Virus record (IMG/VR): IMGVR_UViG_2599185261_000001
Location: 2,531-66,530 of that record
DNA length: 64,000 nt
Source of the DNA: a virus
Reading direction: 5' to 3' (one strand)
Numbering within the stretch: position 1 is the first letter of the stretch; each line of letters opens with the position of its first letter. Made by a program: the position numbers and the translations under genes. A model generated the notes under the pieces. The model saw only the letters and a list, made by a program, of their open reading frames with translations. It was not told where the DNA came from and searched no databases. Positions 3,068-45,573 of the stretch are shown here, in pieces.

Positions 3068-4111
3068 TTAATTCAATTGATAATAAAAAGCAATTTGCAA
3101 TTTAACGATATATAAATAGGGTAGAATAAGCATAAGCAATATATACGCTATGATAAGATTAATTAATGCTATATTCGCAGGAATTTTTCTATAGTAATTT
3201 AAGCCTGCAGCGACTATAAAACCGCCTAAAAACCCCATGTAGCTTAATGGCTCAACTGCCTTAATGAACTCCAAAATATTCAATTCGCCCTTGAAATAAC
3301 TTACAAGATCAGAGTAATCCGTTATAGCTGCACAAGTTATGAACCCGACCAAACTGCATAAAACATTTTGAATATATCTATGAATTTTAGTCGTGAGCAT
3401 ATAAAATATGCTAGTTGCTATTGTTGCAGGCATAAAAACAATAGCCCCAATCAAACCAATTACATACAGCATTATCGAAACAGGAAAAATACCTAATAAA
3501 TCCCTTCCCCCATCTTTATCATCTATATGAATTTCAAACATAAATATGTGCATCATTGCAGGTCCTAGATATATTGGACAAAATATAAAAAATAGGAATG
3601 CATATAGTTTGAAATTAAAATTATCAATTTTTTTTATTATATAATGTGGAGCATATTTTTCTTTCTGCAATATATTTATAAAAAATAATAACATGACAAA
3701 AAAATACAAAAACTGCAACACATCTACAACAACATTTTGATGTGGGTAATTAAATATGTGAAGTAACGCTCTCCACAATACAAAACTAGTACAACTAATT
3801 TTCAAAATTTTAATTTGTTGCTTATATTTATCTTTTTCTTTTAAATATTTAAAGGTTAATCCTGCAATCAAAAAAGGCAAAGAAAAAGGTAATATTACAA
3901 TCACGCCAACACCGTACTCTGAGGCTTTTGAAATTGAAATTTCACTAGGAAACCTAGGAAGAAATAGCCTAAGAACTCTAAATTCCATAAGCAAACTATA
4001 TAAACTGGCTAAATGTGTATACACAGCCGAACTTAAAATAATGCTAAGCAGTATAAATAAATAGAACTGTTTTCTTTCGTTTATATCAATCACAACTATA
4101 TTCCCCATCAA
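3068..4111 (-). CDS. Multi-pass membrane protein, probable cognate CdiI immunity protein
   Basis: Start overlaps the cdiA stop; many hydrophobic helices; very AT-rich. Confidence 0.7.
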   Translation of the reverse strand: MMGNIVVIDINERKQFYLFILLSIILSSAVYTHLASLYSLLMEFRVLRLFLPRFPSEISISKASEYGVGVIVILPFSLPFLIAGLTFKYLKEKDKYKQQIKILKISCTSFVLWRALLHIFNYPHQNVVVDVLQFLYFFVMLLFFINILQKEKYAPHYIIKKIDNFNFKLYAFLFFIFCPIYLGPAMMHIFMFEIHIDDKDGGRDLLGIFPVSIMLYVIGLIGAIVFMPATIATSIFYMLTTKIHRYIQNVLCSLVGFITCAAITDYSDLVSYFKGELNILEFIKAVEPLSYMGFLGGFIVAAGLNYYRKIPANIALINLIIAYILLMLILPYLYIVKLQIAFYYQLN

Positions 4112-10100: not shown

Positions 10101-11443
10101 TAGGCTTTGACCACTGAGCGTAATGTCACCTTTGGCTGCAACGAGACCGGTATTGTCTATTTCCTGCGCAGCCACTGCTACCGTATTTTCGGCATAGAGG
10201 GTGCCTGTGTTGTTGACGATATTCGCATTAACGTTCAGGGTACCTTTATTTTGTATGTCACCGGTATTATTGAGTATACGGGTATTCACTGAGGTATTTT
10301 TATGACTTTCAATGTTACCTTGGTTAGTCAATGCGCTCGACGTTAACTCAATATTGCCTTCTGCATAAAGTTGACCACTATTATCGATATGGTTGCTATG
10401 TGAGGTCAATGAGACATCGCCTTTCGCTTGTATTGCGCCGGTATTAACGAGTTTACCATCAGCGGTAATGGTAATGTTACTGGCTGAAGCGCCTATTTTC
10501 CCGGTATTTTTGACGCCAACTCCGTGTTCGGTACCTACTAAACGGATTTTACCAGCATACATGCCTCCTAAGTCGGAGACATCTATCGCTACGGTAGGTC
10601 TATTCACTTCACTTTGTACGGCATTTTGGATAACGGTCATGTTATCTGCATCGATTTGGTTTTGCCCAGTCGTCACGGTTAGTTCATTCGCCCAGACATC
10701 CCCATTGACTTCAACCGCCCTTGAGATTAAATCAGTTTTATCCTGCCGAGAGCTATCAAGTCCTGCTCCTTGAACGACAATTTTACCATCACTCACCTGA
10801 TAGCCCGTCACTGCGCCATTTTCAACTACGACATTCCCGGTGGTTAGGGTTGCTCGGTGGCTATTAATAAATCCACATCCCTCACAAGTTACGCCGGCTG
10901 GATTGGCGATAATGACTTGGGCTTTTTTGCCCGCTACTTCAACAAACCCATTTAAATGACTAGGATTCTTACTGTTCACTTCATTCAAAATAATTCGTGC
11001 TTCACCTGTTGCAAGGTATGGATTGGCATCTACCATTCCACCTAGCTCAGTTTGACTGGGTTTGCGACCATTATTTAGAATAACCCCTTTTGATTAACGT
11101 CAAACTGGGAATATTTATTGTGTGAAACGCCTGAGGCGCTAGGGGTGTGTATGTTAACTTGAGGGGTACCATTAGCACTCTCAATGATGATGGGTCTTTG
11201 GTTACCAGGTGCATTCGCATCAGCAACAATATTCGCATCCACAGACGATACCCAAAGGATATTACCAAGTACCAGACTGGTCAACCAAACTAACTTTTGC
11301 AAGTTAAATACACTTGATATGGTGTTAACGCCCTCTATCACCGCATCATCTTTATTCGGTTGATGGATTTTGGCTAGCTCAGAGACTGCCGTCATTACAC
11401 CTAAAGCTTGATTGAAGATCACGCGATAACGAAGTTTGTTCAT
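4086..11443 (-). CDS. cdiA: CdiA / filamentous-haemagglutinin-family toxin with VENN pre-toxin motif, interrupted by a 1-nt frameshift at ~11084-11091
   Basis: ESPR-type N-terminus (MNKLRYRVIFNQ...AVSELAK), TPS domain (NPAG, CEGCGFIN), haemagglutinin repeats, GKNAVENNY; adding one base in CAAAAGGGGTT joins ORF 11075-11443 to 4086-11036 via QKGVILNNGRKPSQTELGGMVDANP. Confidence 0.9.
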
Positions 11444-11531
11444 TTGTAATTACCTTTCTCTGTTTTAATATGCATTAAGATATATTTAAGATGTATTATT
11501 CTTTTAAATTTAAATAATCGATATTGATTTG

Positions 11532-13247
11532 CTAGAATTCATAATTCAAATTAAAAGCAAACATTAAATCATCCGTGATGAACCCTTCTGGTTTAGACAA
11601 TGGATGCCCCATATAGAAGTCATAACCAAAATTTTGCCTGCTGCCTCTTATGCCAAGTGCTCCACCTGCTAAATGGGTACCTAATAAAAACTCTGTATCA
11701 GGACCAGTTACTACGCCATAATCAGTTGCTAAGTAAACTTGATAAGAGCCTGTTGGTGCGTGCCAAGAGAATTCACCACGGGTAAACCACCCATTATCCG
11801 CACTTAACGTCCGTTCACCATCAAATCCTCTGACGCTATAGCGACTACCGATGGAAAATTGATCTTGTGAAGTTAACCGATTGACAGCAATCTGCTGTTG
11901 ATGTTGTAGTGAAAAACTAAATTGATCGTTTTGAATCTTAAACGGTAAAGAAAGTCCCGCATCGAATCGCCAAATTTTTGCAAGCGCTGTACCCTCATCA
12001 AACAACTCTTCTGGTGCTGGCTTTGCACCAAACCAACGTGTTCCTCGTTGATAACTGATCCCACCATTTAACGTGAAATTTTCGAAATAGTGTTTGTGCT
12101 GTAATCCTAATTTCCAGGCGGAAGTGCGTCTTCTCTGAACCTCTATTTCAGTATCATCAATATAGTTTTTGGTGCTGCGATAATTAATGTCGTAACTAAC
12201 GGTCGTTTTATGCGATGCGGCTCTGTGCAGCATATGAGCCACTTGAAGGTTTAAACTATTATTGTCTCCACTATAAACATAATCAGTTGTCAGCCCTGCT
12301 ACGGTTTGATGGTAGTTATATCGACTACCTGTAAAGGAGAACAAAGTATCACCAAATGGTAAAGAATAATGCCCTGTTAGGTTTTGAGTTCCTTGTGAAC
12401 TTTTACCATGTACGTCATTATTCCAAGAAACATATGCTAAATCACTGAGTGCCAATGGGTTATCAACATATAAGGTTGCGCTCCCTTGATAGGTGCCTGT
12501 TGATTTTGAACCTGAGTTATCAAGAGACAAAGCAACACGCCAGAATTTCTTCTGATGACGTTTTATGACGATATCACTCTCACCTTGATTTTCGGTTGGC
12601 ACAATTTCCATCTCAGCTTGGACTGTCGAAAGACGCTGTAGGTTTTCTAAACCCTGTTCTATTTTTCGTAAATCCAATAAATCGCCAGACCTTGCTGGCA
12701 TTGCTGTCCATAAAAATGCATATTTAGCACTGCCTTCTTCAAAATAGACTTGACGAACTTTACCTGGGATAATTTTGAGCGTTAAAATACCTGTGGTTAA
12801 ATCTTGCTCCGGTGCAACGATACGAGTGGTAACGTACCCTCTATCAATGATTAAATTTTGTAAGTTACTAACTAACTGACTAATGCCTATTCCACCTAAG
12901 CATAATCCTTGCGCTGATTCTTTCACGAAATTAAGTGGAATAGCTTGTGGAAGCGATTCCTTATCTTCAATTACAATTTGATTAATGACAAAACAGATAT
13001 CCTCAGTTGGATAATCTGAAGAAGACGCTATTCCTGTGCTAGCATCAAATCGCACAGACGGCAATTCTTGAGCAAGCGCTGCCTGCCTTGCTTCCTGCCT
13101 CTGCTGTTGAATAATTTGTTGTTGTTTAATAATTTCATTTCCATTTACATTCAATTCTACGGCATCAATAGAATAAACAAAGAATACGCATAAAAATAAA
13201 ACAAAAGATTTAGAACAAATGGATAACACTGTAACCCCATTAAGCAA
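11532..13247 (-). CDS. cdiB: TpsB/CdiB (ShlB/FhaC/HecB family) outer-membrane transporter
   Basis: POTRA motifs (RGYVTTR, LDLRKIEQGLENL), VRGF loop (SIGSRYSVRGFDGE), C-terminal F; lies upstream of cdiA. Confidence 0.95.
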   Translation of the reverse strand: MLNGVTVLSICSKSFVLFLCVFFVYSIDAVELNVNGNEIIKQQQIIQQQRQEARQAALAQELPSVRFDASTGIASSSDYPTEDICFVINQIVIEDKESLPQAIPLNFVKESAQGLCLGGIGISQLVSNLQNLIIDRGYVTTRIVAPEQDLTTGILTLKIIPGKVRQVYFEEGSAKYAFLWTAMPARSGDLLDLRKIEQGLENLQRLSTVQAEMEIVPTENQGESDIVIKRHQKKFWRVALSLDNSGSKSTGTYQGSATLYVDNPLALSDLAYVSWNNDVHGKSSQGTQNLTGHYSLPFGDTLFSFTGSRYNYHQTVAGLTTDYVYSGDNNSLNLQVAHMLHRAASHKTTVSYDINYRSTKNYIDDTEIEVQRRRTSAWKLGLQHKHYFENFTLNGGISYQRGTRWFGAKPAPEELFDEGTALAKIWRFDAGLSLPFKIQNDQFSFSLQHQQQIAVNRLTSQDQFSIGSRYSVRGFDGERTLSADNGWFTRGEFSWHAPTGSYQVYLATDYGVVTGPDTEFLLGTHLAGGALGIRGSRQNFGYDFYMGHPLSKPEGFITDDLMFAFNLNYEF

Positions 13248-19405: not shown

Positions 19406-20206
19406 TTATTGCAGTATATGAATATCACTGTGGCTTATGGGATAGCTTTTAAATTCAACAGGCAAGAAACCCAATGTTTTACAAATCCCTGTCGCCATAT
19501 CATTAAATGTATCTGATTCACCGGTAAAAAATACCCTCGTTTTCATTACATTGCCTGATACAAATACTCTGACTAAATAACGCTTTTAGAATGAGAACGG
19601 TATCAACTTATCAAAGCTAATGTCTTTTTTAGATTCTGGTTGCTCTGCTTCGAGTAGCTCGCCCACTAATGCCAACTTATGCACGTACTCTACAGCAACA
19701 GGAAGCATTGAAGGTTCTAGTTCATTAATATGTTTAACGTTGAATCTCTGATGAACGTATGAATACGCTTCTGGATAAAGAATGTGTTTTTTGCTTACTA
19801 AGAGGTTGATTGCGTCTCTTAGTGGTGTTCTGTCATCAGCTGTTGATTTGCTATTTGTGGTTGACTGATTAAAACTAGCTCTTAATCTTTTCTCGCACTC
19901 AATAAAGTACCGTCTAATTTCTCTTCCTTTATCGTTACGCTCAACCATCGCTAGTTCTTTTGCTGTATCGAGTGTTAGGTGGTAACCTTTTTTGTTGTGT
20001 CCGCCTCTACCTTTTTGCTTACCAATTTTGGTAAGCAAAATAAAGTCTTGATTTTCAATGAAACCGTAATCAGTTATACGTTCCATGATCCAACTTGCAA
20101 ATTGCTTTCCGACCTGCAAGAAAGCATGCAATTCTCGCGCATCACATAGTAAATTAGTTTCATTATTGATTTGACTCTCAAAGACAGGGATTAATTGATT
20201 AGTCAT
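19406..20206 (-). pseudogene. AntA/AntB-type antirepressor with probable premature stop at 19586
   Basis: CDARELHAFL...FASWI..RI..YGF.ENQDF, LDTAKELAMVERNDKGREIRRYFIECEK; the same frame continues 59 codons past the TAA (KRYLVRVF...HILQ*) to 19406, just before a terminator. Confidence 0.75.
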
Positions 20207-30666: not shown

Positions 30667-31541
30667 TCAAATAGGTGTAAATTTGATTTCTTGAGTATCA
30701 AAATCCAAACCCATTCTTTCGAAAGTTACATGCCTTAAGGATTGGTTTTCTTGAAATTTTTCGATGACATACTTAATATAAATTTCAGGTGTATAACATC
30801 CAAAATATATTTTTTTTATTGCGCTATGCCCGTATTTCACTAATCCTTCTTTTTCAAAAACAAACCTGTATTCATCCTCATACAACCAATCAGCTGTTTT
30901 CATAAAATAATTAGATATGAAATAATCAGCAAAACTAGAGTCTACTAGATTTTCACTCTCAATCCTTTTTTCACCACTTTCGATGTAAGAAATTTTCCGG
31001 TGATAAAATAATTTTTCTTCTTGCAGGGAAAGTTCAAACGCCTCAGGATCATACTCTATGCAAATTCCACGATAGTTATCTGTATACCTATCCCAAAGGC
31101 TTAACGACTTATTTGTTAGAGAAACGCAATAAATCCCCCAGCCATTCATATCTCCAATAATTTCATCGGAAATCTGACATGCAATACCATAGAATTGCGC
31201 ATTAAATTTTTCTAAATCATCTCTTTTGGCATTAACAACATCAATATCTTGGTCTTTCAGTAACTCACGCTTTTTCTTATTTAAACGTCCTGGTATTTTG
31301 AGTGTGTTATGAAAACTGAGCGATGAAAAATTCGATATTTCACCAATAAGATACTGATAAAAAAATCAATCATTTTTTGCCTGGTACTTTTAGCAAATGC
31401 TCCTTCTTTGATATCGTTCATCTGATCTACTGTTGATGCGTATATCTGGCTCTTTAGGAGCATATCTAAATTTCTGCATTTCATATCTTTATCAAAATTT
31501 AACTCTCTATACTTAAAATACCTTAACTGTTTTTTATCCAC
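30667..31541 (-). pseudogene. DUF2971-like moron, split by a 1-nt frameshift
   Basis: FKYR, MND..EG, YCVSL...LWDRY...YRGICIEY, K..DW.YEDEYR and IYFG motifs; one extra T in the run at 31359-31365 joins 31281-31541 to 30667-31149 with no stops. Confidence 0.8.
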
Positions 31542-31576: not shown

Positions 31577-32326
31577 TCACCGCCTAATCAAACTAGACGC
31601 AGGAAACCCACCGAAAGGCAACTTGGCATCTTCACCAAACCTCGCCTTACAGTCAGATAATAACCCACCGCACGAATCCTTACTAGGGTCATCAGTCACA
31701 TTTCCTTTCCTGTCGAAATATTTGGTACCCAAGTAATTACAACCATCACCACTGCGGTACTTTCCACAGTTAGCCCAATGGCATTGTGCGTGAATCTGCC
31801 GGTTAGGCAATGATACACCCTGTAAATCAAAAGGCGAGCCAAGAGTAAACTCGACTATCTCATCATTTTCAGCTGATTTCTGATTAATATAGAAGATGTG
31901 AATTCGTTCTTGGCTTGGGTCAGATTGTGGATTACCTTCAGGAAAATTGCGTTCATCTAAAAAGCATTTAAAGGTTTCATGAATTGTTACTTTGGCATTA
32001 AGCATGTCATCAAAACGCAAGCAAAGCGCTGTGATAAGTTGGTCCACATTCATAATGGATAACTTAGGTTCAGCAGATTGGCCATCAGTAGAAGCTTCTA
32101 TACCCTCAATTTGATATGGAAACGGCATGTACTCATTACCCTGCCACCAGATAGACTTAACTGGAAGTTCCTTACCGCTTTGTCTTGCAAGCTCTAATTC
32201 ATCTTGAGTGTAAGTAATTCTCTCATAATGAAAACGCATAATGTCAGCACCAAAAGCTTCACCGTCCACCTCAATCAGCTTAATCCTTGCGTCAGGCTGC
32301 AATAACTGTTCTTGTGCTGAAATCAT
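31577..32326 (-). CDS. Minor tail protein L
   Basis: WQG.EY.P.P, C.W...YR...C.Y, D.C...LS.C..RF, FGGFP. Confidence 0.93.
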   Translation of the reverse strand: MISAQEQLLQPDARIKLIEVDGEAFGADIMRFHYERITYTQDELELARQSGKELPVKSIWWQGNEYMPFPYQIEGIEASTDGQSAEPKLSIMNVDQLITALCLRFDDMLNAKVTIHETFKCFLDERNFPEGNPQSDPSQERIHIFYINQKSAENDEIVEFTLGSPFDLQGVSLPNRQIHAQCHWANCGKYRSGDGCNYLGTKYFDRKGNVTDDPSKDSCGGLLSDCKARFGEDAKLPFGGFPASSLIRR

Positions 32327-32661
32327 ACGTGATGCGCCTCTTTAAATGTGAAATTGAGCTTAACGTTACCGCCCACCATTGAGTACTTTATTGATTCTTT
32401 CTCTACTCGATAAGTACCTAATTCATTGAATTGATTGCGCCAAATAAACGCTTTCGTTACATGGTCACGCACAAAGTCTAGGATTGGTGATATCTGTTCG
32501 ATGGTACCAATCTGACTTAACTGAATCGTTTTAGTCTCTGAGTTAATTCCCTTTTCGACAACTTGCTCGTAACCATCGCCGAATTTGACCTCTGAAACAT
32601 CCTTAGTAATCGATGTCTCAAGGCCATCCTGAATCTGTACTTTGAATTTGAATTCGTCCAT
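32323..32661 (-). CDS. Minor tail protein M
   Basis: VKFGDGYEQ....GIN and F.W motifs; synteny. Confidence 0.9.
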   Translation of the reverse strand: MDEFKFKVQIQDGLETSITKDVSEVKFGDGYEQVVEKGINSETKTIQLSQIGTIEQISPILDFVRDHVTKAFIWRNQFNELGTYRVEKESIKYSMVGGNVKLNFTFKEAHHV

Positions 32662-32680: not shown

Positions 32681-32709
32681 AAAAAACCGCCTTGGGGCGG
32701 TTTGTTTTT
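32681..32709 (-). terminator. Terminator closing the retron operon
   Basis: AAACCGCC/GGCGGTTT stem with tracts on both sides. Confidence 0.75.
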
Positions 32710-32724
32710 TGTATTTTAAATTCT

Positions 32725-33657
32725 TTATAAATTTGAAAAATATTCAATTTTGTGCTGCAGTCTAGTATCTATTAATTTCAGTGCGTTAACCCGACCAAGT
32801 AATCTTTTTTTAGTAATTTCATAACAACTAGGTGCTCCACCAGATAATTTACAGGCATTTATAACAGTCAAATCTTGATATATCGCTTTATGATGCTTAT
32901 TCATTATTAAAATTTTACTTCCTTTAATAACCACACCAGTTACAATTTTATTTTCCTTACTCGCATACAATTTGGTTTTATTTGGATGAGGCGTATGATT
33001 ATTAGAAATAATGATTTTTTTTACCACTGATAAGAAAAGGTTATTTACACTATTACCAGAAAATGTAATATCATCAACATACACCGTCATTTTGGCGTTA
33101 TGCTTTTCTGCAAGCCCATTCAATTGGGAAAACATTCTAAAATTAGACCAAAAAACTAATGGCATGCTCAATTGGCTGCCAGTAGGAATATGATCATTAT
33201 AAGTAGATAATTTTGATAAAATATCTGCTACATAAACAGAACATTTCATTATATTTAAGAAAAAATTAAAAACTTTGTATCTTAGAGTGGATGGGTAGAA
33301 ACTCTTAATATCTGTTGATAATAGGTTTGTATCTCCAATGTGTACTTTGGCATTTGAAATATTTGAATGTTTTTTCTTGCCTGACTGTAAATATTCAGGG
33401 ACATTTACCCTAATCAAAAGACTAGCAATACGCCAATGAACTTTTTTTAAAACCCCTATAGGAGTTTCAATTACTCTTGTTCCATTTAAAAAAACATTGT
33501 AATTTAGTGGAGATGTAATGCAATCTTTTAATTCTGCTTCATTTATACAGAGTAGCGCAAGTAATTTTTTTTTGCTTTGCAATTTATAAAACGGTGATTG
33601 ATCTAAATGGTAGCACTTTTGATTAGAAATCAGTTTGAGTTTCTTTGTTTTTTTCAT
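32725..33657 (-). CDS. Retron reverse transcriptase
   Basis: NAKVH (NAxxH region X), DIKSFYPS, IPTGSQLS, catalytic YVDD, VTG (region Y). Confidence 0.93.
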   Translation of the reverse strand: MKKTKKLKLISNQKCYHLDQSPFYKLQSKKKLLALLCINEAELKDCITSPLNYNVFLNGTRVIETPIGVLKKVHWRIASLLIRVNVPEYLQSGKKKHSNISNAKVHIGDTNLLSTDIKSFYPSTLRYKVFNFFLNIMKCSVYVADILSKLSTYNDHIPTGSQLSMPLVFWSNFRMFSQLNGLAEKHNAKMTVYVDDITFSGNSVNNLFLSVVKKIIISNNHTPHPNKTKLYASKENKIVTGVVIKGSKILIMNKHHKAIYQDLTVINACKLSGGAPSCYEITKKRLLGRVNALKLIDTRLQHKIEYFSNL

Positions 33658-33943
33658 TTTTAGCAACCAACCATTCCATCAGTTTTAAAATTTTAGTTGT
33701 AGCCATCTTCTTAAATTTACTTGAGAGTAAATTTTTATTATGAATATTTTCAGAAAAAAACACTAAAGAAGAAACGGGCATATCAAAAATTTGCGCATAT
33801 TTATTTAATAATTCAACGCTAACAACTTTTTTATTACCTTCAATTTCTGAGAGAAACGATTTTGATATGCCAAGTTTTTCAGCAAGTTCAACTTGCTTGT
33901 AACCATGATATTGCCTGATTAATTTTAAAGCTTTGCTTAACAT
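33623..33943 (-). CDS. XRE-family HTH protein of the retron operon
   Basis: LKLIR......Q.ELAEKLGISKSFLSEIE; overlaps the RT start; GAGG RBS. Confidence 0.9.
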   Translation of the reverse strand: MLSKALKLIRQYHGYKQVELAEKLGISKSFLSEIEGNKKVVSVELLNKYAQIFDMPVSSLVFFSENIHNKNLLSSKFKKMATTKILKLMEWLVAKNEKNKETQTDF

Positions 33944-33978
33944 AGCATCCTCACTTATGAAATTTAGGGGACCGCTAA

Positions 33979-34125
33979 CTATTCATCACCTTCAAAAAAC
34001 CTAAGAGCATCATATACTAGAATTGCTAAGCGGATAAGCATTTTCAACACTTTCCATGATGACCTTTCTTTTTTCTCTGGTTTCTTTTTACTAGCGTCTT
34101 TTGAAAACAATAATTTGATTAACAT
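33979..34125 (-). CDS. Unannotated 48-aa basic/amphipathic small protein, candidate retron effector
   Basis: AAAAGGT RBS, then MLIKLLFSKDASKKKPEKKERSSWKVLKMLIRLAILVYDALRFFEGDE*; below the ORF-track length cut-off. Confidence 0.7.
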   Translation of the reverse strand: MLIKLLFSKDASKKKPEKKERSSWKVLKMLIRLAILVYDALRFFEGDE

Positions 34126-34129
34126 ATAT

Positions 34130-34377
34130 TTTACCTTTTGGTTTTCTACATACACTATGCATGTAGTTTCGCCTAACCAAGAAGCTGGAGATTTTCAAAA
34201 GTTAACCCCTAGATTCCGCGCTGCGTTTTCGCCGCAGCGCGGGACTTGCGGTTTGCTCTCCGTGATACGCCTGCGTATCACGGGGGGAGACCGTAAGAGA
34301 GTAGTAGAAAACAAATTCATGCTTTCCATTGAGTTTTCACTCAAGTTATTTGGCGATTATTTCTCCTAAATTATTGC
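34130..34377 (-). ncRNA. Retron non-coding RNA (msr/msd-like structured leader)
   Basis: GC-rich hairpins at 34214-34244 and 34245-34297 inside the inverted repeat GTTTTCTAC (34141-34149) / GTAGAAAAC (34304-34312), between the promoter and the small ORF; exact ends uncertain. Confidence 0.75.
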
Positions 34378-34383
34378 CTTGCA

Positions 34384-34435
34384 ATTATAGGGCGGACAGA
34401 ATACTAAGTCAACAAAAAAATTCGCTCAAAGCGAA
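34384..34435 (-). promoter_or_regulatory. Retron promoter with adjacent palindromic operator candidate
   Basis: Minus strand TTGACT (34412-34407), 17 bp, TATAAT (34389-34384); TTCGCT-CAA-AGCGAA at 34421-34435. Confidence 0.75.
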
Positions 34436-34654
34436 CAAACTTAATAACAAATAGTGCATACTAAAATTATACAGATTACACATAACTCTTCCAATTAGCC
34501 TCTACAATTAAAAAGTAGCGCTCAAAAAATAAAGCCCTAAGCTAAATTTAGGGCTCTTGCCTTATCTTAATTTTATATCACACCACACAACTTTCTCTAT
34601 CAAAGCCAAAAAGTCTTTTATAAAAAAGTATCTAACCATTTTCTTTGTTAGGAT

Positions 34655-35446
34655 TTAAAAACCTTTTTTGTTCAACTTTGCATACGCATCACAACCGTAT
34701 TGTTCGCCATTATCACAAGATAATCCAAAATACTCCTTTGCTTTATCAAGATTTTGCTCAACACCATATCCTTCAGCATACATTGACCCAAGCATTGCTT
34801 GTGCAATTGCTGATCTCTTATCAGCCGCTGATTCTAAGTACCATTTTGCTTTTTGATAATCTTGTTTAACTCCTTGACCTTCAGCATACATTACCCCAAG
34901 AATTGCTTGTGCAATTGTGATTCCCTTATCTGCAGCCAATTCTAAATACTTTTTTGCTTTATAAAAATCTGGCTCAGTGCCTTGACCATTATAATACATC
35001 AAACCAAGCATCTCTTGAGCTTTAATATCCCCTCTATCAGCTGCTAGTTCGAAGTATTTTTTTGCTTTGGAATAATCCTGCTTAATGCCTTGACCATCAA
35101 AATACAAACTAGCAAGCATCGTTTGTGCTGGAAGATTTCCCTTATCAGCCGCTAGTTCTAAATACTCTTTTGCTTTCTGGTAGTCTTGTTTTACTCCTTT
35201 GCCTTCAGCATACATCCCAGCAAGCATGGATAGTGCAACATCACTTCCCTTATTCGCAGCTAATTCAAAATATTCTCTTGCTTTATAATAATCTTGCTCA
35301 ACATAACGGCCTTCATAATATTTAAAACCCAAAGTTAATCCCATATTTATATTATCTTGATCAATCTTATTTCCTAAACTTGCAACATCTGCAGAAACCG
35401 AGAATGACAACAAACAGACAATACAAAACAATATTTTTTTCATCAC
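34655..35446 (-). CDS. Sel1-repeat exported protein (prophage moron)
   Basis: About six 36-aa SLR repeats (G.GVKQDY.KAK.Y.E.AA.KG); signal peptide. Confidence 0.9.
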   Translation of the reverse strand: MMKKILFCIVCLLSFSVSADVASLGNKIDQDNINMGLTLGFKYYEGRYVEQDYYKAREYFELAANKGSDVALSMLAGMYAEGKGVKQDYQKAKEYLELAADKGNLPAQTMLASLYFDGQGIKQDYSKAKKYFELAADRGDIKAQEMLGLMYYNGQGTEPDFYKAKKYLELAADKGITIAQAILGVMYAEGQGVKQDYQKAKWYLESAADKRSAIAQAMLGSMYAEGYGVEQNLDKAKEYFGLSCDNGEQYGCDAYAKLNKKGF

Positions 35447-35537: not shown

Positions 35538-38500
35538 TTATCGCCCAATCCTATTGTTAATCACCTGATGAATAATCCCACCTTGTTTAGTCTCTTTCAT
35601 GATTGCTTCACGAACGACACCTCCGATTACTTTACCTAGATTATCTCCACCGCCAGAAGTGCTTGATTGAGTCTCAGTGTTGCCACCGTTGTTGTTTACA
35701 ACTACGCTGACGTGGATGTCGCCTGTGCCCAACCCTATCATAGAAGGGATATGAGAATTGTTGACTGTGGGAGCCATCCCACCTCCAACGGCACCACCTT
35801 GAGCATAACCTCCATGCGCCCTATTCATGATCTCATAAAGATTCCGAACACCTAACCTCTGTGTAGCCTCTTTGGTAAAAACAAATTCACCTTTATGAAC
35901 AATACCAGCTGGTTCGTATTTATTTCCTGTTCCTGTAAATCCACCACTAGACTTACCTGGTAACCCCAAAAATGAACCAAAAGCGGTGCCAGTGAAAGCT
36001 GTTTGTATTGCGCTAAACATAGCCATTTTTACAATCATGCTTGATAAATCACGGATTACTGACTTAGCCAAATCAGCAAAATCTGCTTTACCTGTCATAA
36101 CCATATCTGTTAACGCATCAGATATTCCATTGAACGCACCAGAACAGACCTGAGCTACATTGGTCGATACGCTCATAGCATTCGCTGCATAATCATTCCA
36201 AGCCTTAACAGCCCCATTTTTCCAGCTACCCTCAGCTTCAGATAATTCCGCATAGGCCCTCTTGCTATACTCAATTGCAGATTGTTGCTGTAATGCCAAT
36301 GAAGCTGCATACATAGGACCAGCAATACCTGCGTTACCAATCTCCTCTCGTTTTTGAGTAAACTGATTTTTGATTTGCTGCTCCCTAGCATATTGAGCCG
36401 CTTGCTTGGAGCTCATTGTCAAGGTAGCTAATTGTTGCTTGAGATTCTCCTCTTGGTTTCGTTGCTCAAGAGAAATCTGTTTGCTTATATCTAGATAGGC
36501 TTGTTTTCCATTGACCATCTTTGCAATTATTGCTTCTTCTTGCAGTGATGATCTTATAAGTGACTCCTGAGCAAGCAATGCCAAATCATCTGCAGTTTGA
36601 GCCTTGCCTTTTATTAATAAGATTCGCTCCTCAAATTCAGCAAGGCGCTTTTCCTCTGCAGTTAACTTCTCGCTTGCTCTTAATTGCTCTGTCAGAGTTC
36701 GCAAGCGTTCTTTTGAATCAAGTAATGCCCTGATGCCTGAGTCGTCTTTAGCACCGCCACCGCCTTTAGAGCCCTTTTCTCTTTCAGAATTAAGTTCATT
36801 TTGTTTGTCAATTTTTAACCGAGTTTGCGCGGCTTGTGTAGCTGACTCTTCATTAAATCCCTCTTTTTCCAAATAGTCCTGTTTGTAACTTGCTAAAGTT
36901 CTTTTCTCCTTATCGACAATCTTCGTAATTTCAAGCTCTTTTTGTAATCTAGCAAGTTCAGCTGTAACACTTTCAGGAGGACCCATAGAATCAGCTAAAC
37001 TCACATTCATTGCAGCTTGCATTTGTCCTAGTGCATATGCTATTCCAGAGCCTAGATTTCGCCATGCTACTGCTTGTTGACCTAAATTAATTGCTGCTTG
37101 AGTACCTTTAGTGATTGTTTGTTCTTGAGTAAAATTCAAAATTGATAAAGCCGTTTTATCTTTATCAACTAATACTGTGTGCTTAGCTGTTTCATCGTTT
37201 AATTTTTGCCGTAATACGATGATTTCTTGTTCCAACCTTGCATCTTTCTCATCTCTGAATTTATCTCCTTCGCCATAAGTTTCATTTTGAGATTTAATCT
37301 TAGCCCTTTCTAGTTTTAAGCTTGCAATTTTATCTTGTAAACCCTTTATTTCATTTACTGAATCAAGAATTGGTTGCTTGAGAGCGTTACGCAAAGCGCC
37401 TGTCTCATATGATATCTGCCTAATAGAATCAAGGGTAAGACTTGATGCGTTTGCTTTCATCTTTTCCATTTCATCATTAATTGATTTGTTAGATTCTTTT
37501 AGCTGAATAACCAGTCCATCTAATCCAAGCTTTACTAAATCTCTTTGTTTCTTTAGCTCAATAATCTTTTCTTGGGCTTCTTGATCGTTTTTAAACAATT
37601 TCCCAAATGTAGCTTTAGATCCTTCATAGCTAGAAATATCATTTTCAAGCTTATCTAACTCCTCTCTTTGATTTCTTATTTTTTCAATAATCGAAAATGA
37701 ATCACTGTTAGATTTTACAATAGAAAAGCTTGCTACTTTCTTCATAGAATTAGCTAAATTTTCCATTTCTTTGCCTAAGTTAACCGCTTCCTCTCTAGCT
37801 TGCTTAGACTTTTCATAAAAGTAATAAAGTGCGCTAGCGGCAATTATAGCAACTCCAGCTTTCCCCCCTATTGCGCCTAAAGCTCTATTCATTGTAGATA
37901 ATGATGCTGCCCTTGCTTGTGCTGCTGCAGTTGCGTTAGTTGCTTGGCCAAGTGCTTGCTCGCTTTGTCTTGCTTGCATGTTTGCTCTAACTAATCTTAG
38001 TCTGGCCGCCTCTAAATTTCTATTAGCTTGAGCGGCTCTATCAGTTCCTGCAGCAGCTTGTTGTTCAGCTAATCTCTGATTTACAAGATTTTGAATTCTA
38101 GCTTGGTTAGCGACCCTATCTAAATTTGTTCTAATTGCTTGTGTTTTAGCTGACTGAGCTTGAGTGACCGCTAATTGAGCCTCTGACCTTAATAATGTTA
38201 GATTTGCATTAGCCGCTTGAATTCTTGATTGACTAAATTTAACAGCCCAAACAACCGCAGACATCATTCCTACTGCTAAAGCTGTCTTTATAACTGTTGC
38301 AACCGTTGCTGAATTTTCCTCAAGTGCTTTCACTGCGCTGGTAGCAAGACTTACACCATCAGTAAATTCACTCATGAATGAAGCACCCATCTTCACTTTA
38401 AGATCATCAACGTAACGGCTCATTGATCGTAATTGTTTGCCAGCCTCGCTCATAGATGCTTCATAAGCACCTGATATCATTGCACCTCGTTCCATTACCG

Positions 38501-39092
38501 CATTAACACGAGCTTGTGTCTTTTCTTGCTCAGTCAATGAATTAGCTGTTTTACCTATTTGTGCAGCCATCTTCTTATAGGCTTCTTCAAAGTTAACCGT
38601 GATACCGATTGTTCTCAGTACATCTGTTTGCGCAGTCTGAACACCGTAAATCAAGCGACTGTAAGCCTCTGATGAATTTAAACCACCAATAACAGCGGCA
38701 TCTTGCGCTAAACGAGCAAGACCTGTAGCTTTAGATAGGTCAATATTCGCTTGGATTAGATTCGCAATACTCGAACGAGACTCAAGCGCACTGATCCCTG
38801 TTTTTTTCAGCGCACCTTCAACATCTAATAATTGCTTGGAAGTATATCCTGCATTCATACCAATCGCTTTCATCGTAACACCAAGCTCACGGTATCGAGC
38901 ATTGGCCATTGTTGCTTCTTTAACGATTTTAGTGAGACTGGTACCAATGATGAATCCCGCAAAGGCCTTACCTAGCTCTTTGACTGTCATCGCTGAGTTT
39001 TTGCCTGTTTCATCTAAATCTAATAATGCTTGTTTCGCATCCTTAACTTCTTTTGTGTTGATCCTTAAGTGCAGGTTTGCTATGTCTGTCAT
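35538..39092 (-). CDS. Tail tape-measure protein
   Basis: 1184 aa, Ala-rich helical; lambda-type C-terminus (GKADFADLAKSV, GGFTG.G.KYEPAGIVHKGEFV). Confidence 0.95.
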   Translation of the reverse strand: MTDIANLHLRINTKEVKDAKQALLDLDETGKNSAMTVKELGKAFAGFIIGTSLTKIVKEATMANARYRELGVTMKAIGMNAGYTSKQLLDVEGALKKTGISALESRSSIANLIQANIDLSKATGLARLAQDAAVIGGLNSSEAYSRLIYGVQTAQTDVLRTIGITVNFEEAYKKMAAQIGKTANSLTEQEKTQARVNAVMERGAMISGAYEASMSEAGKQLRSMSRYVDDLKVKMGASFMSEFTDGVSLATSAVKALEENSATVATVIKTALAVGMMSAVVWAVKFSQSRIQAANANLTLLRSEAQLAVTQAQSAKTQAIRTNLDRVANQARIQNLVNQRLAEQQAAAGTDRAAQANRNLEAARLRLVRANMQARQSEQALGQATNATAAAQARAASLSTMNRALGAIGGKAGVAIIAASALYYFYEKSKQAREEAVNLGKEMENLANSMKKVASFSIVKSNSDSFSIIEKIRNQREELDKLENDISSYEGSKATFGKLFKNDQEAQEKIIELKKQRDLVKLGLDGLVIQLKESNKSINDEMEKMKANASSLTLDSIRQISYETGALRNALKQPILDSVNEIKGLQDKIASLKLERAKIKSQNETYGEGDKFRDEKDARLEQEIIVLRQKLNDETAKHTVLVDKDKTALSILNFTQEQTITKGTQAAINLGQQAVAWRNLGSGIAYALGQMQAAMNVSLADSMGPPESVTAELARLQKELEITKIVDKEKRTLASYKQDYLEKEGFNEESATQAAQTRLKIDKQNELNSEREKGSKGGGGAKDDSGIRALLDSKERLRTLTEQLRASEKLTAEEKRLAEFEERILLIKGKAQTADDLALLAQESLIRSSLQEEAIIAKMVNGKQAYLDISKQISLEQRNQEENLKQQLATLTMSSKQAAQYAREQQIKNQFTQKREEIGNAGIAGPMYAASLALQQQSAIEYSKRAYAELSEAEGSWKNGAVKAWNDYAANAMSVSTNVAQVCSGAFNGISDALTDMVMTGKADFADLAKSVIRDLSSMIVKMAMFSAIQTAFTGTAFGSFLGLPGKSSGGFTGTGNKYEPAGIVHKGEFVFTKEATQRLGVRNLYEIMNRAHGGYAQGGAVGGGMAPTVNNSHIPSMIGLGTGDIHVSVVVNNNGGNTETQSSTSGGGDNLGKVIGGVVREAIMKETKQGGIIHQVINNRIGR

Positions 39093-39157: not shown

Positions 39158-39562
39158 TTATTTTGTTGCTACTGTATTTATTATAAGCTTGCTTGCTGCT
39201 TCAATTGTATTTTCTGCGTGCAAAATAACAGAATCAACTGCCATTTGAGATATATTTCTATTTAGATCGTAGTCGCTTTCATTTCTTTTCTTCCTCATAA
39301 AAGCTAACATATTCGCTATAGCACCCGCAGTTACTTTATCATATTTTGTTGGTAATGCCTTATCATTAAATTTACCTTTAAGATATTTTATCAAGTTATC
39401 ATGTGCTGAAGGTCTTAAATCTGGTGGATCGATTAGTTGAGACAGAACCTCATGATAAGCTGAATAATAAGCCCTTGATATAGAACACCGAAAGTTAACT
39501 TCATTTTTTGTTTGATTGCATTGTTTCGCAAAATCTAAAAATTCAGATGGCTTTATAGACAT
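39158..39562 (-). CDS. HEPN-domain protein (copy 1)
   Basis: ISRAYYSAYH...H..L...RNESDYDL. Confidence 0.8.
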   Translation of the reverse strand: MSIKPSEFLDFAKQCNQTKNEVNFRCSISRAYYSAYHEVLSQLIDPPDLRPSAHDNLIKYLKGKFNDKALPTKYDKVTAGAIANMLAFMRKKRNESDYDLNRNISQMAVDSVILHAENTIEAASKLIINTVATK

Positions 39563-40341
39563 TAATTAGTAGCTCCATCTAAATGATCATAATCATCATA
39601 ATCAAAACCTATAACTAGATCAGATTCAAGCAATCCTCTTTTAGATAATTCAAATGATAACTCTAAATTCATATCAGCAATATCTTTTGGCTTTGCTACT
39701 ACATAAAAAATCAAGGAAAAATCATTGCTTGATGGTTGAGAGACTTGTCCAATGTAGGCTTTATGTTTTTGAGCGTAACTTAAAGCTATTCTATGAATTT
39801 CTTTATACTGAGTTTTATCAATAAATCTCATAACAAAACCCTCAACATTGGCTGTTTCATCAAAATTAATACCGTGTTTACATAAATCAATCTTTAATTT
39901 GTGTAAATTAGCGACAATAGACTTACGAAAATCAATATCCCCAAAAATTAATGAATAAAAAAATAATTTCACTAAAACCATTTCATCAAAAGGGTAAGTT
40001 TTTAATGCGGTTTCCATAGCATTAGGCATTTTTTCATACTCTGATAGCATCCATAGCGTTGTTAAATAGTTATAACAACAATCAGCGTCAACTAATGAAT
40101 ATGATTGTAATTTACAAATACCTGAATTTATATTCCCTCTAAGTATATCTAGAAAAGCATCACAAGTAATTGCCCGTATGCTATTTTCTACTAGTAGCTC
40201 ATCTTTTATTTTTTTGTGCATTTGAGCTAATTCAATTTCATTTTCAACGAAATCATTTTTAAAGTCTCTAAACTTACTTTTCATCAAAAATTGAAGTCTT
40301 TCAAAAATAACACTTGAATTTGTAGCTGGTTGTATTTTCAT
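39562..40341 (-). CDS. Hypothetical helical protein coupled to HEPN copy 1
   Basis: TAATG stop/start overlap with the HEPN gene; distantly similar to 43577-44365. Confidence 0.75.
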   Translation of the reverse strand: MKIQPATNSSVIFERLQFLMKSKFRDFKNDFVENEIELAQMHKKIKDELLVENSIRAITCDAFLDILRGNINSGICKLQSYSLVDADCCYNYLTTLWMLSEYEKMPNAMETALKTYPFDEMVLVKLFFYSLIFGDIDFRKSIVANLHKLKIDLCKHGINFDETANVEGFVMRFIDKTQYKEIHRIALSYAQKHKAYIGQVSQPSSNDFSLIFYVVAKPKDIADMNLELSFELSKRGLLESDLVIGFDYDDYDHLDGATN

Positions 40342-40711: not shown

Positions 40712-41572
40712 TCAGTTTCTCAAAGACTCCAACGCATACCGCCAATTAGAATGAGACAACCAAGTCGGATGCGGATTGATATCTCGAGTTTCACGCTCTA
40801 AGGTTACTTTGGCTTTATTAATTACTCGCCTGTATTCCATTGACATTGAGTAAAAACTAGCGGCATAGCCTGATTTTAAAGACCTCAATGGCGCTTCAAC
40901 TTCTTCAATGCTACTTCGCATACGTTCAGCTGCTTTCCATAACCAAGCAAGATTGCATAACTCATCATCTGTTAAAGAAATGGTATGCATTAATTCCTGT
41001 TCGCCATTTTTAACTGGTGCGTCTAAAACCTCTCCAGTTAAAACAAGTTTATGTACGTACTCTACTGCTGTGGTTATTTCAGATGGCTCTAGTTCATCAA
41101 TATGTTTAACATTGAATCTCTGATGAACGTAAGAATATGCCTCTGGGTAAAGAATGTGTTTTTTACTTACTAAAAGGTTGATTGCGTCTCTTAGTGGTGT
41201 GCGGTCATCAGCTGTTGATTTTGATGTCTTGGTATTTTCTGCTGTATATGAACCTGTTTTTCGGATTGCAGGTAACACTTCGTTTGTTACCCACTTTCTG
41301 AATAATTGAGCTTCTTTTTTTCGTGATTTGAATAATGCGTGATATAGGCCTGATTCATTGATGATAAGCATATCTTGGTCTCCGGAGGGGGTACGCATAT
41401 TGTGCGTATCCCTCTCATCACTATCTAATACACGCGTTAAATCACTCGCATTCCTATATTCAAGCACTTTTGCTACATCGGACGCAACGAACCAGACAAC
41501 AGAGTCTTTAAAAACTGTTCTAACTTCGTGTGAATTAAAATTGAATACTGCAGGTGTGGCTTGATTAGTCAT
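40712..41572 (-). CDS. BRO-N antirepressor with P22_AR_C-like C-terminus
   Basis: WFVASDV..VLEY.N, IINESGLY....SRK.EA..FRKWVT.EVLPAIRKTGSY; EL.NLAWLW. Confidence 0.9.
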   Translation of the reverse strand: MTNQATPAVFNFNSHEVRTVFKDSVVWFVASDVAKVLEYRNASDLTRVLDSDERDTHNMRTPSGDQDMLIINESGLYHALFKSRKKEAQLFRKWVTNEVLPAIRKTGSYTAENTKTSKSTADDRTPLRDAINLLVSKKHILYPEAYSYVHQRFNVKHIDELEPSEITTAVEYVHKLVLTGEVLDAPVKNGEQELMHTISLTDDELCNLAWLWKAAERMRSSIEEVEAPLRSLKSGYAASFYSMSMEYRRVINKAKVTLERETRDINPHPTWLSHSNWRYALESLRN

Positions 41573-41584
41573 ATTGACCTCGTT

Positions 41585-41800
41585 TTTTCTTCTGAAGGAA
41601 ATTTACTACCTTAAATGGTAGTGCCAGGAGGTTCAGAACAGTAAACGTACTGCGGACTTATTTCTCTTTCGAGTATTGTATTAGTCGCCCTCCCGACATA
41701 GATCGAGAAAGTGATTGCTTTTGCTAGGATACAAAAACAAAAAATCCAACACTGACGGGGTTGGTTAATTAATCCGCGTTTAGGGTTCTGACGCCTACAA
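41585..41800 (-). ncRNA. C4/CI-like antisense RNA leader upstream of the antirepressor
   Basis: Minus-strand stem ATGTCGGGAGG/CCTCCTGGCAC with G-U pairs; internal GTTCTGA complementary to TCAGAAC upstream (~41785-41791) and TCAGAA near the RBS (~41590-41595). Confidence 0.5.
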
Positions 41801-43194: not shown

Positions 43195-43593
43195 TTAATT
43201 TTCTTGAATATTATCTTTTATGGATTTAACTTTACTAATGAACTTATTGGCTGTTGCAATACTTTGCTTTGCGTCAAGCTCATTAAGCTGAGAATCTAAT
43301 TTGTAATCAGCAATAATTCTTTTATTTCTTTCGTTTTCTAAGGTGTAAAGTAGCCGCTTAAGTTTTTTTTCATCTGCTTCTTTAACGTTTAACCTGCTTA
43401 AATTTATGGCTAACTGCTGATGAACCCCTTTTTTCGGTATCTTTTTAAATGGGCCAAACTCATTAAGAATGCAGTGGTACATTGCGTAATAAGATCTTGA
43501 TACTACATTCCTGTTGTAAATCTCTGAATTATTCAGACCTATTATTGATGTAGCAAAATCCAAAAATGATAAATAATTAATTTGCGCTGACAT
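43195..43593 (-). CDS. HEPN-domain protein (copy 2)
   Basis: VSRSYYAMYH...GVHQQL...RIIADYKL. Confidence 0.8.
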   Translation of the reverse strand: MSAQINYLSFLDFATSIIGLNNSEIYNRNVVSRSYYAMYHCILNEFGPFKKIPKKGVHQQLAINLSRLNVKEADEKKLKRLLYTLENERNKRIIADYKLDSQLNELDAKQSIATANKFISKVKSIKDNIQEN

Positions 43594-44365
43594 TTATCCC
43601 ATACCCTATTTTGCTGTTTACTGAGAAGTAAATTGGGAATTTAACGTCTCCCTCATACAAATCGACTATTTTATCCGCTAGCTCGAAATTAAGATCAACT
43701 ACTGTATCAACATCAGCATCAAGACAGATGAACATTGTAGGAGTTAACTCATTAGGTAAACAAACTCGTGTGATATTGAAACTAGATGTTTCGATTAAGC
43801 TTAGAGCCAACTTTATATTACGCAAAATATTATCTGGGTTTTCTTTGGTTGCCTTTATAGCTTTCTGAATAGCTGTCGTATATTTTCTTTGCATTTTAAC
43901 ATCCACCTTTGCATCATCAAGAATCTCTTTTTCTTCAGTAAATCTGACTTTATTAATCACAGCAAAAGCACTTGTTATTATTTTTAGGTCACAAAATAAA
44001 TACCCTATGAAAATTACATTTGTCAAAACCCCGTTATCTAAATGAAAGTCAACTTGTTCTAATTCCTTTATCAAATTATATGAGCTAATATATTGATTTT
44101 TCATATTAAGTGCAAAAAGATAATTATTGGCAACAAGACCTGAAATATGTGCTCCTCCTGAAAAAATGGACATTGCTTCGTCTAAATTTCCTAAATAGGC
44201 ACTCAACAAGCCCTCACAGGAAATTCTGATTTCTATATCATCACATAAAAGGATATCTCTTTTTATCATAGCTAATTGGAATTCAGTAAGTACTGATTTA
44301 TTTTTCAATGCATCAGCCAGAAGCACTACATGCTCAAAAGCTTTGGGTTTGGGTATCATGCTCAT
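43577..44365 (-). CDS. Hypothetical helical protein coupled to HEPN copy 2
   Basis: GGAG RBS before MSMIPKPK; overlaps the HEPN gene; C-terminal DLNFELA matches DMNLELS in 39562-40341. Confidence 0.75.
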   Translation of the reverse strand: MSMIPKPKAFEHVVLLADALKNKSVLTEFQLAMIKRDILLCDDIEIRISCEGLLSAYLGNLDEAMSIFSGGAHISGLVANNYLFALNMKNQYISSYNLIKELEQVDFHLDNGVLTNVIFIGYLFCDLKIITSAFAVINKVRFTEEKEILDDAKVDVKMQRKYTTAIQKAIKATKENPDNILRNIKLALSLIETSSFNITRVCLPNELTPTMFICLDADVDTVVDLNFELADKIVDLYEGDVKFPIYFSVNSKIGYGINVSAN

Positions 44366-44845
44366 CAGTATCACTCCAATAAATTTATTCAAATTGTTGC
44401 AATACTAACTTATACAGCTCCATATTTAAAGGAGGATTTAGACTGGTTAACTTTTGTACTTTGATAATCCAAATTTGGAGAACCAAAGTGTGAAACGTAG
44501 ACATCCATTTGGGTATTACGGTAAAATCAAAGTGGTAGCACATCAAATTGACGTTAAGGAATAATATCAATTACATAACAAGGCTAACGCCTAAATGGTG
44601 TTAAGGAACAAAATCAATAAATCAGATGATGTGCTTTTGTTGAGGTCGTCGAATCAACGACCCGAGTAATTCCATTGGTAGTCGAATCAACTACCAATGA
44701 CCACAACAACTAAATTAACCCGCAACTTTTCGCAGGTTATTCCTTGTTATTACATAAACCAAAACTGATATTTATAATAAAATCAATATACTAGATTGCT
44801 AAATTCTAGTATTTACTTTAAATTCAGTTAACTAGATTATATAGC

Positions 44846-45421
44846 TTATTTCTTTTCACCAATAAGCGCAAATTCGAACTGCAATTGATAGCGTTTCGTC
44901 CAAGCCTCAACCCTTTCTTTGATTTCTTTCTTAGCTCTTTTACGTACATTCATAAATACAGCGCCTTTACTTGCGTTCTCAAAAGTCTCTTTGTCGTACC
45001 GAGCTATTTCTTGGGCTTCCACTTCAGCAGGACTAAATGACCTAGGTTTGACCTGACCAGTAGTCCAGTATTCATAGAGAACATCATCGCACTGTTCTTG
45101 GTACTGAATAACTTTATCGCGTATTTCAGGTTTAACTTTGCTTGGGCTGATGGTTGCCAACCAACCAGCTAATTTGCGGAGGGCAAGGCAGGTCATCATC
45201 TGATCACCTCCTTTTGAAGGTATAACGATTTCCGTTACACCTTTTGTAAAGCGCCGCTTTAACTTCTCATTTTGAGATTGCCAAGTTAAGCCCATACCTT
45301 CAACAACAGGTTTCATGGGAACAAATGGTTCACCATTATGTTCAACAACAAATAAATCAGCACCGTGAAATGGAACTCTGATAGTCGAATTGGTATTAAC
45401 TGTGCTTAATTGATTTTGCAT
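44846..45421 (-). CDS. P22 Ant N-terminal-domain antirepressor
   Basis: VPFHG..L....NGEPFVPMKPVVEGMGL.W..Q..KL, L.GWL..I.P.KVKPEIR.KVIQYQ..CDDVLYEYWT; TAAGGAG RBS. Confidence 0.9.
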   Translation of the reverse strand: MQNQLSTVNTNSTIRVPFHGADLFVVEHNGEPFVPMKPVVEGMGLTWQSQNEKLKRRFTKGVTEIVIPSKGGDQMMTCLALRKLAGWLATISPSKVKPEIRDKVIQYQEQCDDVLYEYWTTGQVKPRSFSPAEVEAQEIARYDKETFENASKGAVFMNVRKRAKKEIKERVEAWTKRYQLQFEFALIGEKK

Positions 45422-45573
45422 AATAATTCTCCTTATGGAATGAGCCAAAGCGCACGGATATGTAGCCCACAGAGTTAGAATTAACTACTTACCCCATTGG
45501 CTCATTCCGTAAAGCCCTGTGATTATGTCGCGCCGTGCGTGGCGCATAAAAAAGCCCCGAGGATTAGTCGAGG

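Follow-up and report, generated by a model that had tools for sequence, protein, structure and literature searches.

What does a retron do among the tail genes of a prophage, and what could hold the small protein that it encodes in check? The question is raised by a 64,000-nucleotide (nt) stretch of the virus record IMGVR_UViG_2599185261_000001 (the window, whose numbering is used for all coordinates), in which genes for a 48-aa small protein (SP), a helix-turn-helix (HTH) protein and a reverse transcriptase (RT) follow one another, all retron parts lying on the minus strand. The initial annotation was made from the letters and a list of open reading frames (ORFs) alone; here we added profile searches, folding, trees, relatives and the preprints on related systems. 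Together these genes form an intact type VI retron, a new member of an already known type. We consider it probable that it is an intact retron of the Vpa2 lineage, carried as swappable cargo of the tail operon, which would protect lysogens by abortive infection, its multicopy single-stranded DNA (msDNA) unlocking translation of the 48-aa toxin. For its family the locus is ordinary, and its value is that of a test case.

The locus is an intact type VI retron

The genes and their flanking signals are as follows.

34384..34412, minus strand: sigma-70-type promoter, TTGACT-17-TATAAT (11/12 consensus; position kept in relatives)
33979..34125, minus strand: SP, 48 aa, basic N-terminus and amphipathic C-terminal helix, likely toxin (positional homologues; PHROG 15287, E 1.4e-5)
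33623..33943, minus strand: XRE/Cro-C1 HTH protein, 106 aa, recognition helix intact (PADLOC HTH_VI 3.7e-35; Pfam HTH_3; alignment)
32725..33657, minus strand: type VI retron RT, 310 aa (PADLOC RT_VI 7.7e-89; predicted local distance difference test score of the model 92.7)
32684..32703, minus strand: intrinsic terminator-like hairpin of the prophage backbone (common to genome G001; repeated elsewhere in the prophage)

The gene calls of the initial annotation were borne out: the 48-aa ORF, the XRE-HTH gene, which overlaps the RT gene by 35 nt, and the RT, put at about 311 aa, which is stop-free and counts 310 aa from its ATG (313 from a TTG). The RT carries the NAxxH (NAKVH, residues 102-106), YxDD (YVDD, 193-196) and VTG (240-242) motifs on a retron RT fold, the best fold matches of its predicted structure being the retron RTs Ec67 and Ec86. 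The proposed promoter is present as the top of 20 matches; promoter-like matches by themselves are no more frequent than chance (14.7 +/- 3.8 in shuffles). The stem of the proposed terminator is also present, but it belongs to the prophage backbone and is found in a same-genus prophage without the retron. Sequencing runs X1 and X2 are identical to the window; they are possibly its own source, hence not independent. Low-depth pieces in X3 and X4 were left out of account. A search of the retron locus against Rfam gave no match.

Type VI has been defined by a clade 3 RT, a Cro/C1 HTH protein of 91-110 aa and small accessory proteins (Mestre et al. 2020, PMC7736814, cited from its accessible text). 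The HTH protein of the window falls within this range, and a small helical protein is provided by the 48-aa ORF before it, which has positional homologues and is shorter than the accessory clusters 2075, 2760 and 3272 of that text (75-79 aa). The assignment to type VI made in the initial annotation held in profile searches and on an RT tree. With PADLOC the RT scored 7.7e-89 against RT_VI and 1.7e-39 against the next type (295.7 versus 133.6 bits; RT_V, 74.6 bits), and fast trees, built with RTs of types other than IV and V, placed it among type VI RTs and apart from types II, III and XI (support 99-100). A non-retron RT (group II intron, diversity-generating retroelement, abortive infection or defence-associated RT) was ruled out by the PADLOC profiles and the fold matches. 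Single-sequence scans of genome and viral contigs gave no relatives, whereas an alignment-based search did; among 283 homologues the nearest RTs are 50-55% identical. For later counts we chose 54 non-duplicate loci with HTH and SP from 138 records.

Two type VI retrons have been characterised, Vpa2 (10.1101/2025.10.22.683967) and Sen3 (10.64898/2026.04.27.721009), and statements on both refer to the accessible parts of the preprints. In all sequence comparisons Retron-Vpa2 is represented by a stand-in, the near-copy L192. The 55-aa SP of L192 has K15, F43 and F45 and its HTH protein has R7, the residue numbers published for Vpa2, with L39 replacing I39, and its RT is almost identical to a V. 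parahaemolyticus cluster; the Vpa2 RT accession WP_069548583.1 was not among the accessions listed for the four clusters looked up. The window RT is 44% identical to that of L192, and the two share a clade, supported at 96-97 in two of three fast trees and at 84 in the other. Judged through this stand-in, the window retron appears to belong to the Retron-Vpa2 lineage. Because its RT groups with L192, Vpa2-like logic would be expected, with Sen3 as the rival.

With Vpa2, which stands for the 'Large' lineage, the window shares the order RNA-SP-HTH-RT and a short SP with a hydrophobic C-terminal helix. The two differ in SP length (48 versus 55 aa, with little sequence identity), in HTH residue 7 (K versus R) and in the prophage tail-operon slot of the window. 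Sen3, compared by description, shares the gene order, a YVDD RT and an SP encoded within a structured transcript that contains a long-range inverted repeat, but its SP has 79 aa, its single-stranded DNA (ssDNA; 112 and 145 nt) is constitutive and its control is post-translational.

A predicted hybrid RNA folds over the start of the small protein gene

In Vpa2 the SP is a toxin encoded inside a 470-nt hybrid RNA, the HTH protein keeps reverse transcription low, and a trigger-induced 86-nt msDNA with a 5' stem-loop frees SP translation; 7-nt direct repeats are present, one copy lying in the msDNA hairpin loop (10.1101/2025.10.22.683967). The same plan can be drawn for the window, with the SP start in a stem, an inverted repeat (IR) closing after the SP and 7-nt direct repeats, the transcript ends being predicted.

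33944..34378, minus strand: predicted hybrid RNA of about 435 nt (msr-msd, riboregulator and SP coding sequence; inferred ends; fold z = -4.4, Vpa2 plan, alignment)
34305..34345, minus strand: two conserved msr-like hairpins (fold; invariant G, GG and CT columns in 31 loci)
34216..34300, minus strand: predicted msd, a long stem-loop and a 10-bp hairpin (34242-34216), msDNA about 84 nt (folds as RNA and DNA; inferred ends)
34206..34211, minus strand: IR1, TAGGGG, complement of IR2 (conserved, weak covariation)
34098..34201, minus strand: predicted riboregulator arm, 10-bp stem 34201-34192 / 34107-34098 (fold and covariation)
33965..33970, minus strand: IR2, CCCCTA, 3' of the SP stop (complement of IR1)

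The structured leader of about 250 nt seen in the initial annotation does fold (z = -5.6, 0/200 shuffles equally stable), but the RNA likely extends to about 33944, and none of 100 shuffles of the region 34378-33944 was as stable. The riboregulator arm encloses copy 2 of the direct repeat (34173-34167), a hairpin (34166-34146), the SP ribosome site AAAGGT (34138-34133) and the SP start. Across 49 loci its stem gave a pairing run of 7.92 with each locus's own segments versus 4.56 in swapped loci (0/300). The repeat, GGCGAAA, is the sole 7-mer direct repeat in the leader, with copy 1 (34233-34227) in the loop of the msd hairpin, and its copies change together, the 5-mers being identical in 36 of the 49 loci versus 21.2 when shuffled. 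Covariation of IR1 with IR2 is weak (matched in 1/300 shuffles for Watson-Crick pairs and in 25/300 with GU allowed).

Over 34098-34125 the N-terminus of the SP reads a conserved RNA stretch in a different frame from its relatives (KDA versus QTL), which suggests that RNA pairing rather than the peptide is kept there.

The 5' end complements the direct repeat and forms a candidate latch

How msDNA frees SP translation was left open in the Vpa2 work (Zhang et al., 10.1101/2025.10.22.683967). The 5' end of the predicted RNA holds an element that bears on this point.

34352..34366, minus strand: candidate 5' latch, in which GGAGA (34366-34362) is the complement of TCTCC (34191-34187) and TCGCC (34356-34352) that of the direct repeat

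TCTCC stands before repeat copy 2, and the four segments are ordered as a pseudoknot. The msDNA loop would show TCGCC and would therefore mimic the RNA 5' end, so that it could displace the latch. We thus regard the 5' complement and repeat copy 2 as a candidate latch that msDNA may displace.

After removal of three loci without an automatic anchor and two misanchored ones, 49 of the 54 remained for the latch count, with segments placed by segment alignment. In these the core holds 229 of 245 pairs (shuffles 214.9 +/- 1.9, 0/5000; slid controls 75-116), and the GGAGA helix gives a run of 5.18 versus 4.11 (0/500 shuffles). A change from G-C to A-U (the C-to-T form) occurs in eight loci and requires at least two events on the RT tree; further compensated forms were found by eye in L192, in L006/L042 and in five loci of a separate clade. 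The latch fits copy 2 better than copy 1 in 22/49 loci, about six of which owe this to a misplaced copy 1. A held-out metagenome set comprised 80 loci, 64 of them with HTH, of which 32 were kept (long enough and <90% identical). In the 25 whose repeat was located automatically, one of them wrongly, the run was 5.04 versus 4.21 (0/2000), and in all six loci whose core varies the complement varies to match.

As far as it was accessible, the main text on Vpa2 makes no mention of a pseudoknot and describes the two repeats alone; its figure S4 may show the element. We found no paper since 2024 on pseudoknots in type VI retron msDNA. The latch thus appears to be a family-wide feature, absent from the literature searched and not special to the window locus. 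What the covarying 5' complement supplies is a set of exact compensatory changes that bear on msDNA-driven SP translation.

A palindrome before the promoter is a predicted HTH operator

Upstream of the promoter lies a second family feature.

34421..34435, no strand assigned: palindrome TTCGC-N5-GCGAA, predicted HTH operator (10/10 match; ends 8 nt before the -35 box)

We scored the box as present at 9 or more of 10 matches, and the recognition helix as intact with 5-6 of six residues (Q17 and S27-K-S-x-x-S-E33). The palindrome is present in 42/46 loci with an intact helix versus 0/19 with a decayed one, L192 being among the latter. Loci without an HTH gene fell below 9/10 in six of seven cases, the match of the seventh lying far upstream of its promoter. 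Chance would give 0.005 occurrences per 320 nt, and the 3.55-Mb host genome holds three. Joint loss of palindrome and helix requires five changes on the tree, three of them forced by strong branches, and the palindrome occurs in alpha-, beta- and gammaproteobacterial as well as verrucomicrobial loci. The held-out set agreed, with the box in 22/23 intact-helix loci versus 2/9 decayed ones (Fisher p 8e-5, overstated by kinship). The window keeps both the recognition helix and the palindrome, neither of which is found in L192, and its HTH protein likely autoregulates through the palindrome, unlike that of the Vpa2 stand-in.

Controller (C) proteins of restriction-modification systems are small XRE proteins with a palindromic site before the -35 box of their own operon. 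The type VI arrangement, in which a palindrome directly precedes the -35 box and some relatives have another site overlapping that box, resembles theirs, and this is a resemblance only: the box is another one, and the type VI HTH protein also has a role in the RT-RNA complex in the accessible published text.

The accessible parts of both type VI preprints contain no wording on an operator, a palindrome or autoregulation. The wider literature search, which left subscription papers mostly outside, returned no relevant paper on the predicted operator; PMC9769523 deals with another box and was set aside. From the alignments the predicted operator, too, would be a family-wide feature absent from the literature searched. 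It suggests that the Vpa2 system lacks a control layer kept by most sampled relatives, and it bears on how the cassette is safely installed when a phage brings the retron into a new cell.

Type VI-like RTs that lack an HTH gene and have a small ORF directly before the RT were seen at L189 (1543-3649), L047, L048, L049, L051, L064 and L080. L189 keeps a three-copy RNA motif and has an insertion sequence upstream and a TIR gene downstream.

The small protein is the likely toxin and the HTH protein its restraint

The window SP had no match in PADLOC or Pfam profiles, and PADLOC gave one weak match each in two of 27 members of the SP family and otherwise none. Relatives nevertheless carry a similar small ORF ahead of the HTH gene, and in this family the N-terminus is basic, one Trp is nearly invariant, and a hydrophobic helix is often followed by acidic residues in the tail; the hydrophobic moment of the window SP reaches 0.60. 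An in-frame GTG at 34155 would extend it to 58 aa. We rejected this start, which sits within a hairpin, has no ribosome site and is wrongly spaced, whereas the ATG has homologous spacing from the repeat.

Toxicity had been attributed to the small ORF and/or the HTH protein. The first half of this proposal stands, the SP being the likely toxin, but HTH as toxin was rejected on the accessible text of the two preprints, in which this protein is the restraint: in Sen3, where ssDNA is constitutive and the SP has 79 aa, it is a protein antitoxin (10.64898/2026.04.27.721009). By analogy, SP is likely the toxin and HTH the restraint in the window retron, and a clone deleted for HTH would therefore be expected to be toxic. 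Absence of RT-DNA from uninfected cells would be compatible with a Vpa2-type retron. A search of the HTH profile against the PDB gave four matches, including PezA, C.BclI and SinR, with PezA the best named.

The retron occupies a variable cargo slot in a lambdoid prophage

32706..34652, no strand assigned: variable cargo slot between the Sel1 gene (34655-35446) and tail gene M (32323-32661); likeness to G001 ends at 32705 and restarts at 34653

PHROG matches describe a lambdoid late operon with lysis, terminase, portal, head and tail genes, in which the slot is flanked by the tape measure (35538-39092) and Sel1 genes upstream and by tail genes M, L, K, I and J downstream. The description of the retron as a moron in the prophage tail module was upheld by its own promoter and the backbone terminator behind it, its insertion in the late operon, and its absence or replacement in related phages. 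In the same-genus genome G001 a homologous prophage has the slot filled by an unrelated 262-aa and 126-aa pair, and homologous contigs of run X4 diverge from the window at the terminator. Scoring was possible for 26 of 36 related phage loci; in 24 of these there is no room for a gene between tape measure and M, two hold other cargo and none an RT. The coding part of the retron has 29% GC versus 40-41% in the flanking tail genes.

Carriage of type VI retrons by phages is already published and common. They are named in four temperate phages, Shewanella MuM16-1, Klebsiella ST147-VIM1phi7.1, P2_2H1 and Burkholderia KS5, in the accessible text of PMC8541194, and retrons are listed in P2 and P4 hotspots in that of PMC9122126. 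MuM16-1 and Yersinia phage 56.17 also have the retron between structural genes; the window differs in its lambdoid carrier and in the slot between tape measure/Sel1 and gene M. In our searches 42 viral loci matched, 16 of 23 matching phage records covered 80% of the RT, and one of 60 host relatives had a type VI-level match.

The window contig stops at a cI-like gene, and the left arm of the prophage is therefore out of view. The host genome encodes RecC and three RecT proteins, one RecT gene being adjacent to an exonuclease VIII gene on C41, a phage-like contig; Gam and ERF were searched for in the host genome and not found. C41 (G000, 16.7 kb), with integrase, SSB, methylase, RecT and exonuclease VIII genes, may be the left arm of the retron prophage; no end overlap joins it to C19. 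One may ask how a lambdoid prophage that possibly has RecE/RecT genes avoids tripping its own retron.

A proposed switch and its alternatives

The elements seen in the sequence are an own promoter, an RNA folding over the SP ribosome site and start, HTH and RT. By analogy with Vpa2, RT, HTH and RNA would form a complex with low reverse transcription and the SP untranslated; phage recombination proteins or inhibition of RecBCD, as in Vpa2 and Sen3, would then let msDNA of about 84 nt accumulate. We predict that the RNA 5' end (GGAGA...TCGCC) latches the riboregulator loop by pseudoknot-like pairing, and that TCGCC in the msDNA hairpin loop competes for repeat copy 2 and so frees the ribosome site. 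The SP would then be made and the cell arrested; membrane action through the amphipathic helix is a guess. HTH would bind the palindrome before the -35 box and set operon transcription, a layer lost in L192. We infer that the lysogen population would be protected in this way. The wider proposal, that in most type VI retrons HTH also autoregulates through the conserved TTCGC-N5-GCGAA and that the switch works by strand exchange among three parts, an msDNA mimic displacing the 5' end latch, we offer tentatively, as a real possibility rather than an expectation. If true, strand exchange would supply the missing mechanism of msDNA-driven translation, and the operator would give this sensor a second output, at the level of transcription.

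Several observations weigh against this account. For the window locus, msDNA, toxicity and defence are extrapolated from relatives, and L192, only a stand-in, has YVDD where the accessible Vpa2 preprint writes YADD. With AAAGGT the SP gene has a weaker ribosome site than most relatives, which have AGGAG. The latch helices are 5 bp each, in loci that are related and not independent; in 7/49 loci copy 1 is the better match to the latch, and covariation, while supporting the pairing, would not tell an off state from an on state. As to the operator, two held-out loci with a helix score of 4 of 6 keep the palindrome, the second half-site over the -35 box is seen in 13/41 loci and not in the window, and the helix score and cut-offs were chosen after part of the first set had been viewed, which makes the held-out count the fair test. 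Finally, Sen3 has the same gene order with another mechanism (10.64898/2026.04.27.721009).

That mechanism provides an alternative in which the SP is always made and neutralised by HTH as a protein antitoxin, msDNA is present constitutively and inhibition of RecBCD frees the toxin, with the operator serving type II toxin-antitoxin autoregulation. An operator-binding antitoxin would suit the HTH protein, whose best named PDB match is the antitoxin PezA, and RecC is present in the host; together with the identical gene order and the Sen3 data this gives the alternative some standing. Nevertheless, Sen3 belongs to cl2075, whose 79-aa SP has long N- and C-terminal extensions in the accessible text that the 48-aa SP does not share, the window RT groups with L192 instead, and both the repeat pair and the stem covering the SP start are kept in relatives and covary, all of which makes a Sen3-like window retron unlikely.

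The cassette might also be a real type VI retron that has ceased to give useful defence in this host, or one that acts mainly on carrier or co-resident prophages, whose recombination genes would trigger it. Its long branch (nearest RT 55% identical), the weaker ribosome site, an SP N-terminus that deviates from the family pattern, the three RecT genes and the split DUF2971 cargo gene nearby all point that way. Yet its three ORFs are open, the catalytic motifs are intact, all conserved RNA elements and a perfect palindrome are retained, and related cassettes reside in inducible temperate phages such as MuM16-1 according to the accessible literature; we hold this alternative to be quite improbable. 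Still less probable, in our judgement, is a plain Vpa2-like retron in which the palindrome is a host-regulator site or the remnant of a terminator-like hairpin, and in which the 5' complement only aids folding. A scan did score 34436-34420 as terminator-like, and the tests in the accessible Vpa2 text cover just a 23-nt msDNA stem-loop (10.1101/2025.10.22.683967). A site of that kind sits poorly with a palindrome that spans three proteobacterial classes and verrucomicrobial loci, is rare in the host genome, has been lost together with the recognition helix in at least three lineages and, in HTH-less loci, is missing or distant from the promoter.

Other cargo of the prophage and a second retron

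The prophage is unusually loaded with morons, and its late operon is rich in cargo genes. Between tail L and K (30667-31541) lies a DUF2971 gene, a candidate for defence by its PADLOC PDC-S31 match, which is split into ORFs of 86 aa and 160 aa; the corresponding place is taken by a 279-aa gene in G001 and by 884 other letters in run X4. Two copies of a module of about 260 aa and 130 aa (39158-40341 and 43195-44392; PHROG 5176, weak HEPN-like matches) are of the same kind as the pair in the G001 retron slot and are possible toxin-antitoxin or defence cargo. Three anti-repressor (Ant) genes were found (19586-20206, 40712-41572 and 44846-45448). An Rfam match to sRNA-Xcc1 (41615-41697) precedes an anti-repressor gene and overlaps a second copy of the retron-slot terminator.

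At 4086-13247, ORFs of 2316 aa and 122 aa, preceded by one of 571 aa, match consecutive portions of a single PHROG family, which looks like the splitting of a large gene, and our impression is of a two-partner secretion locus. The genome also encodes a second retron, of type II-A, in which an NDT_II-A gene precedes the RT (G000:C20:91685-93564, L002).

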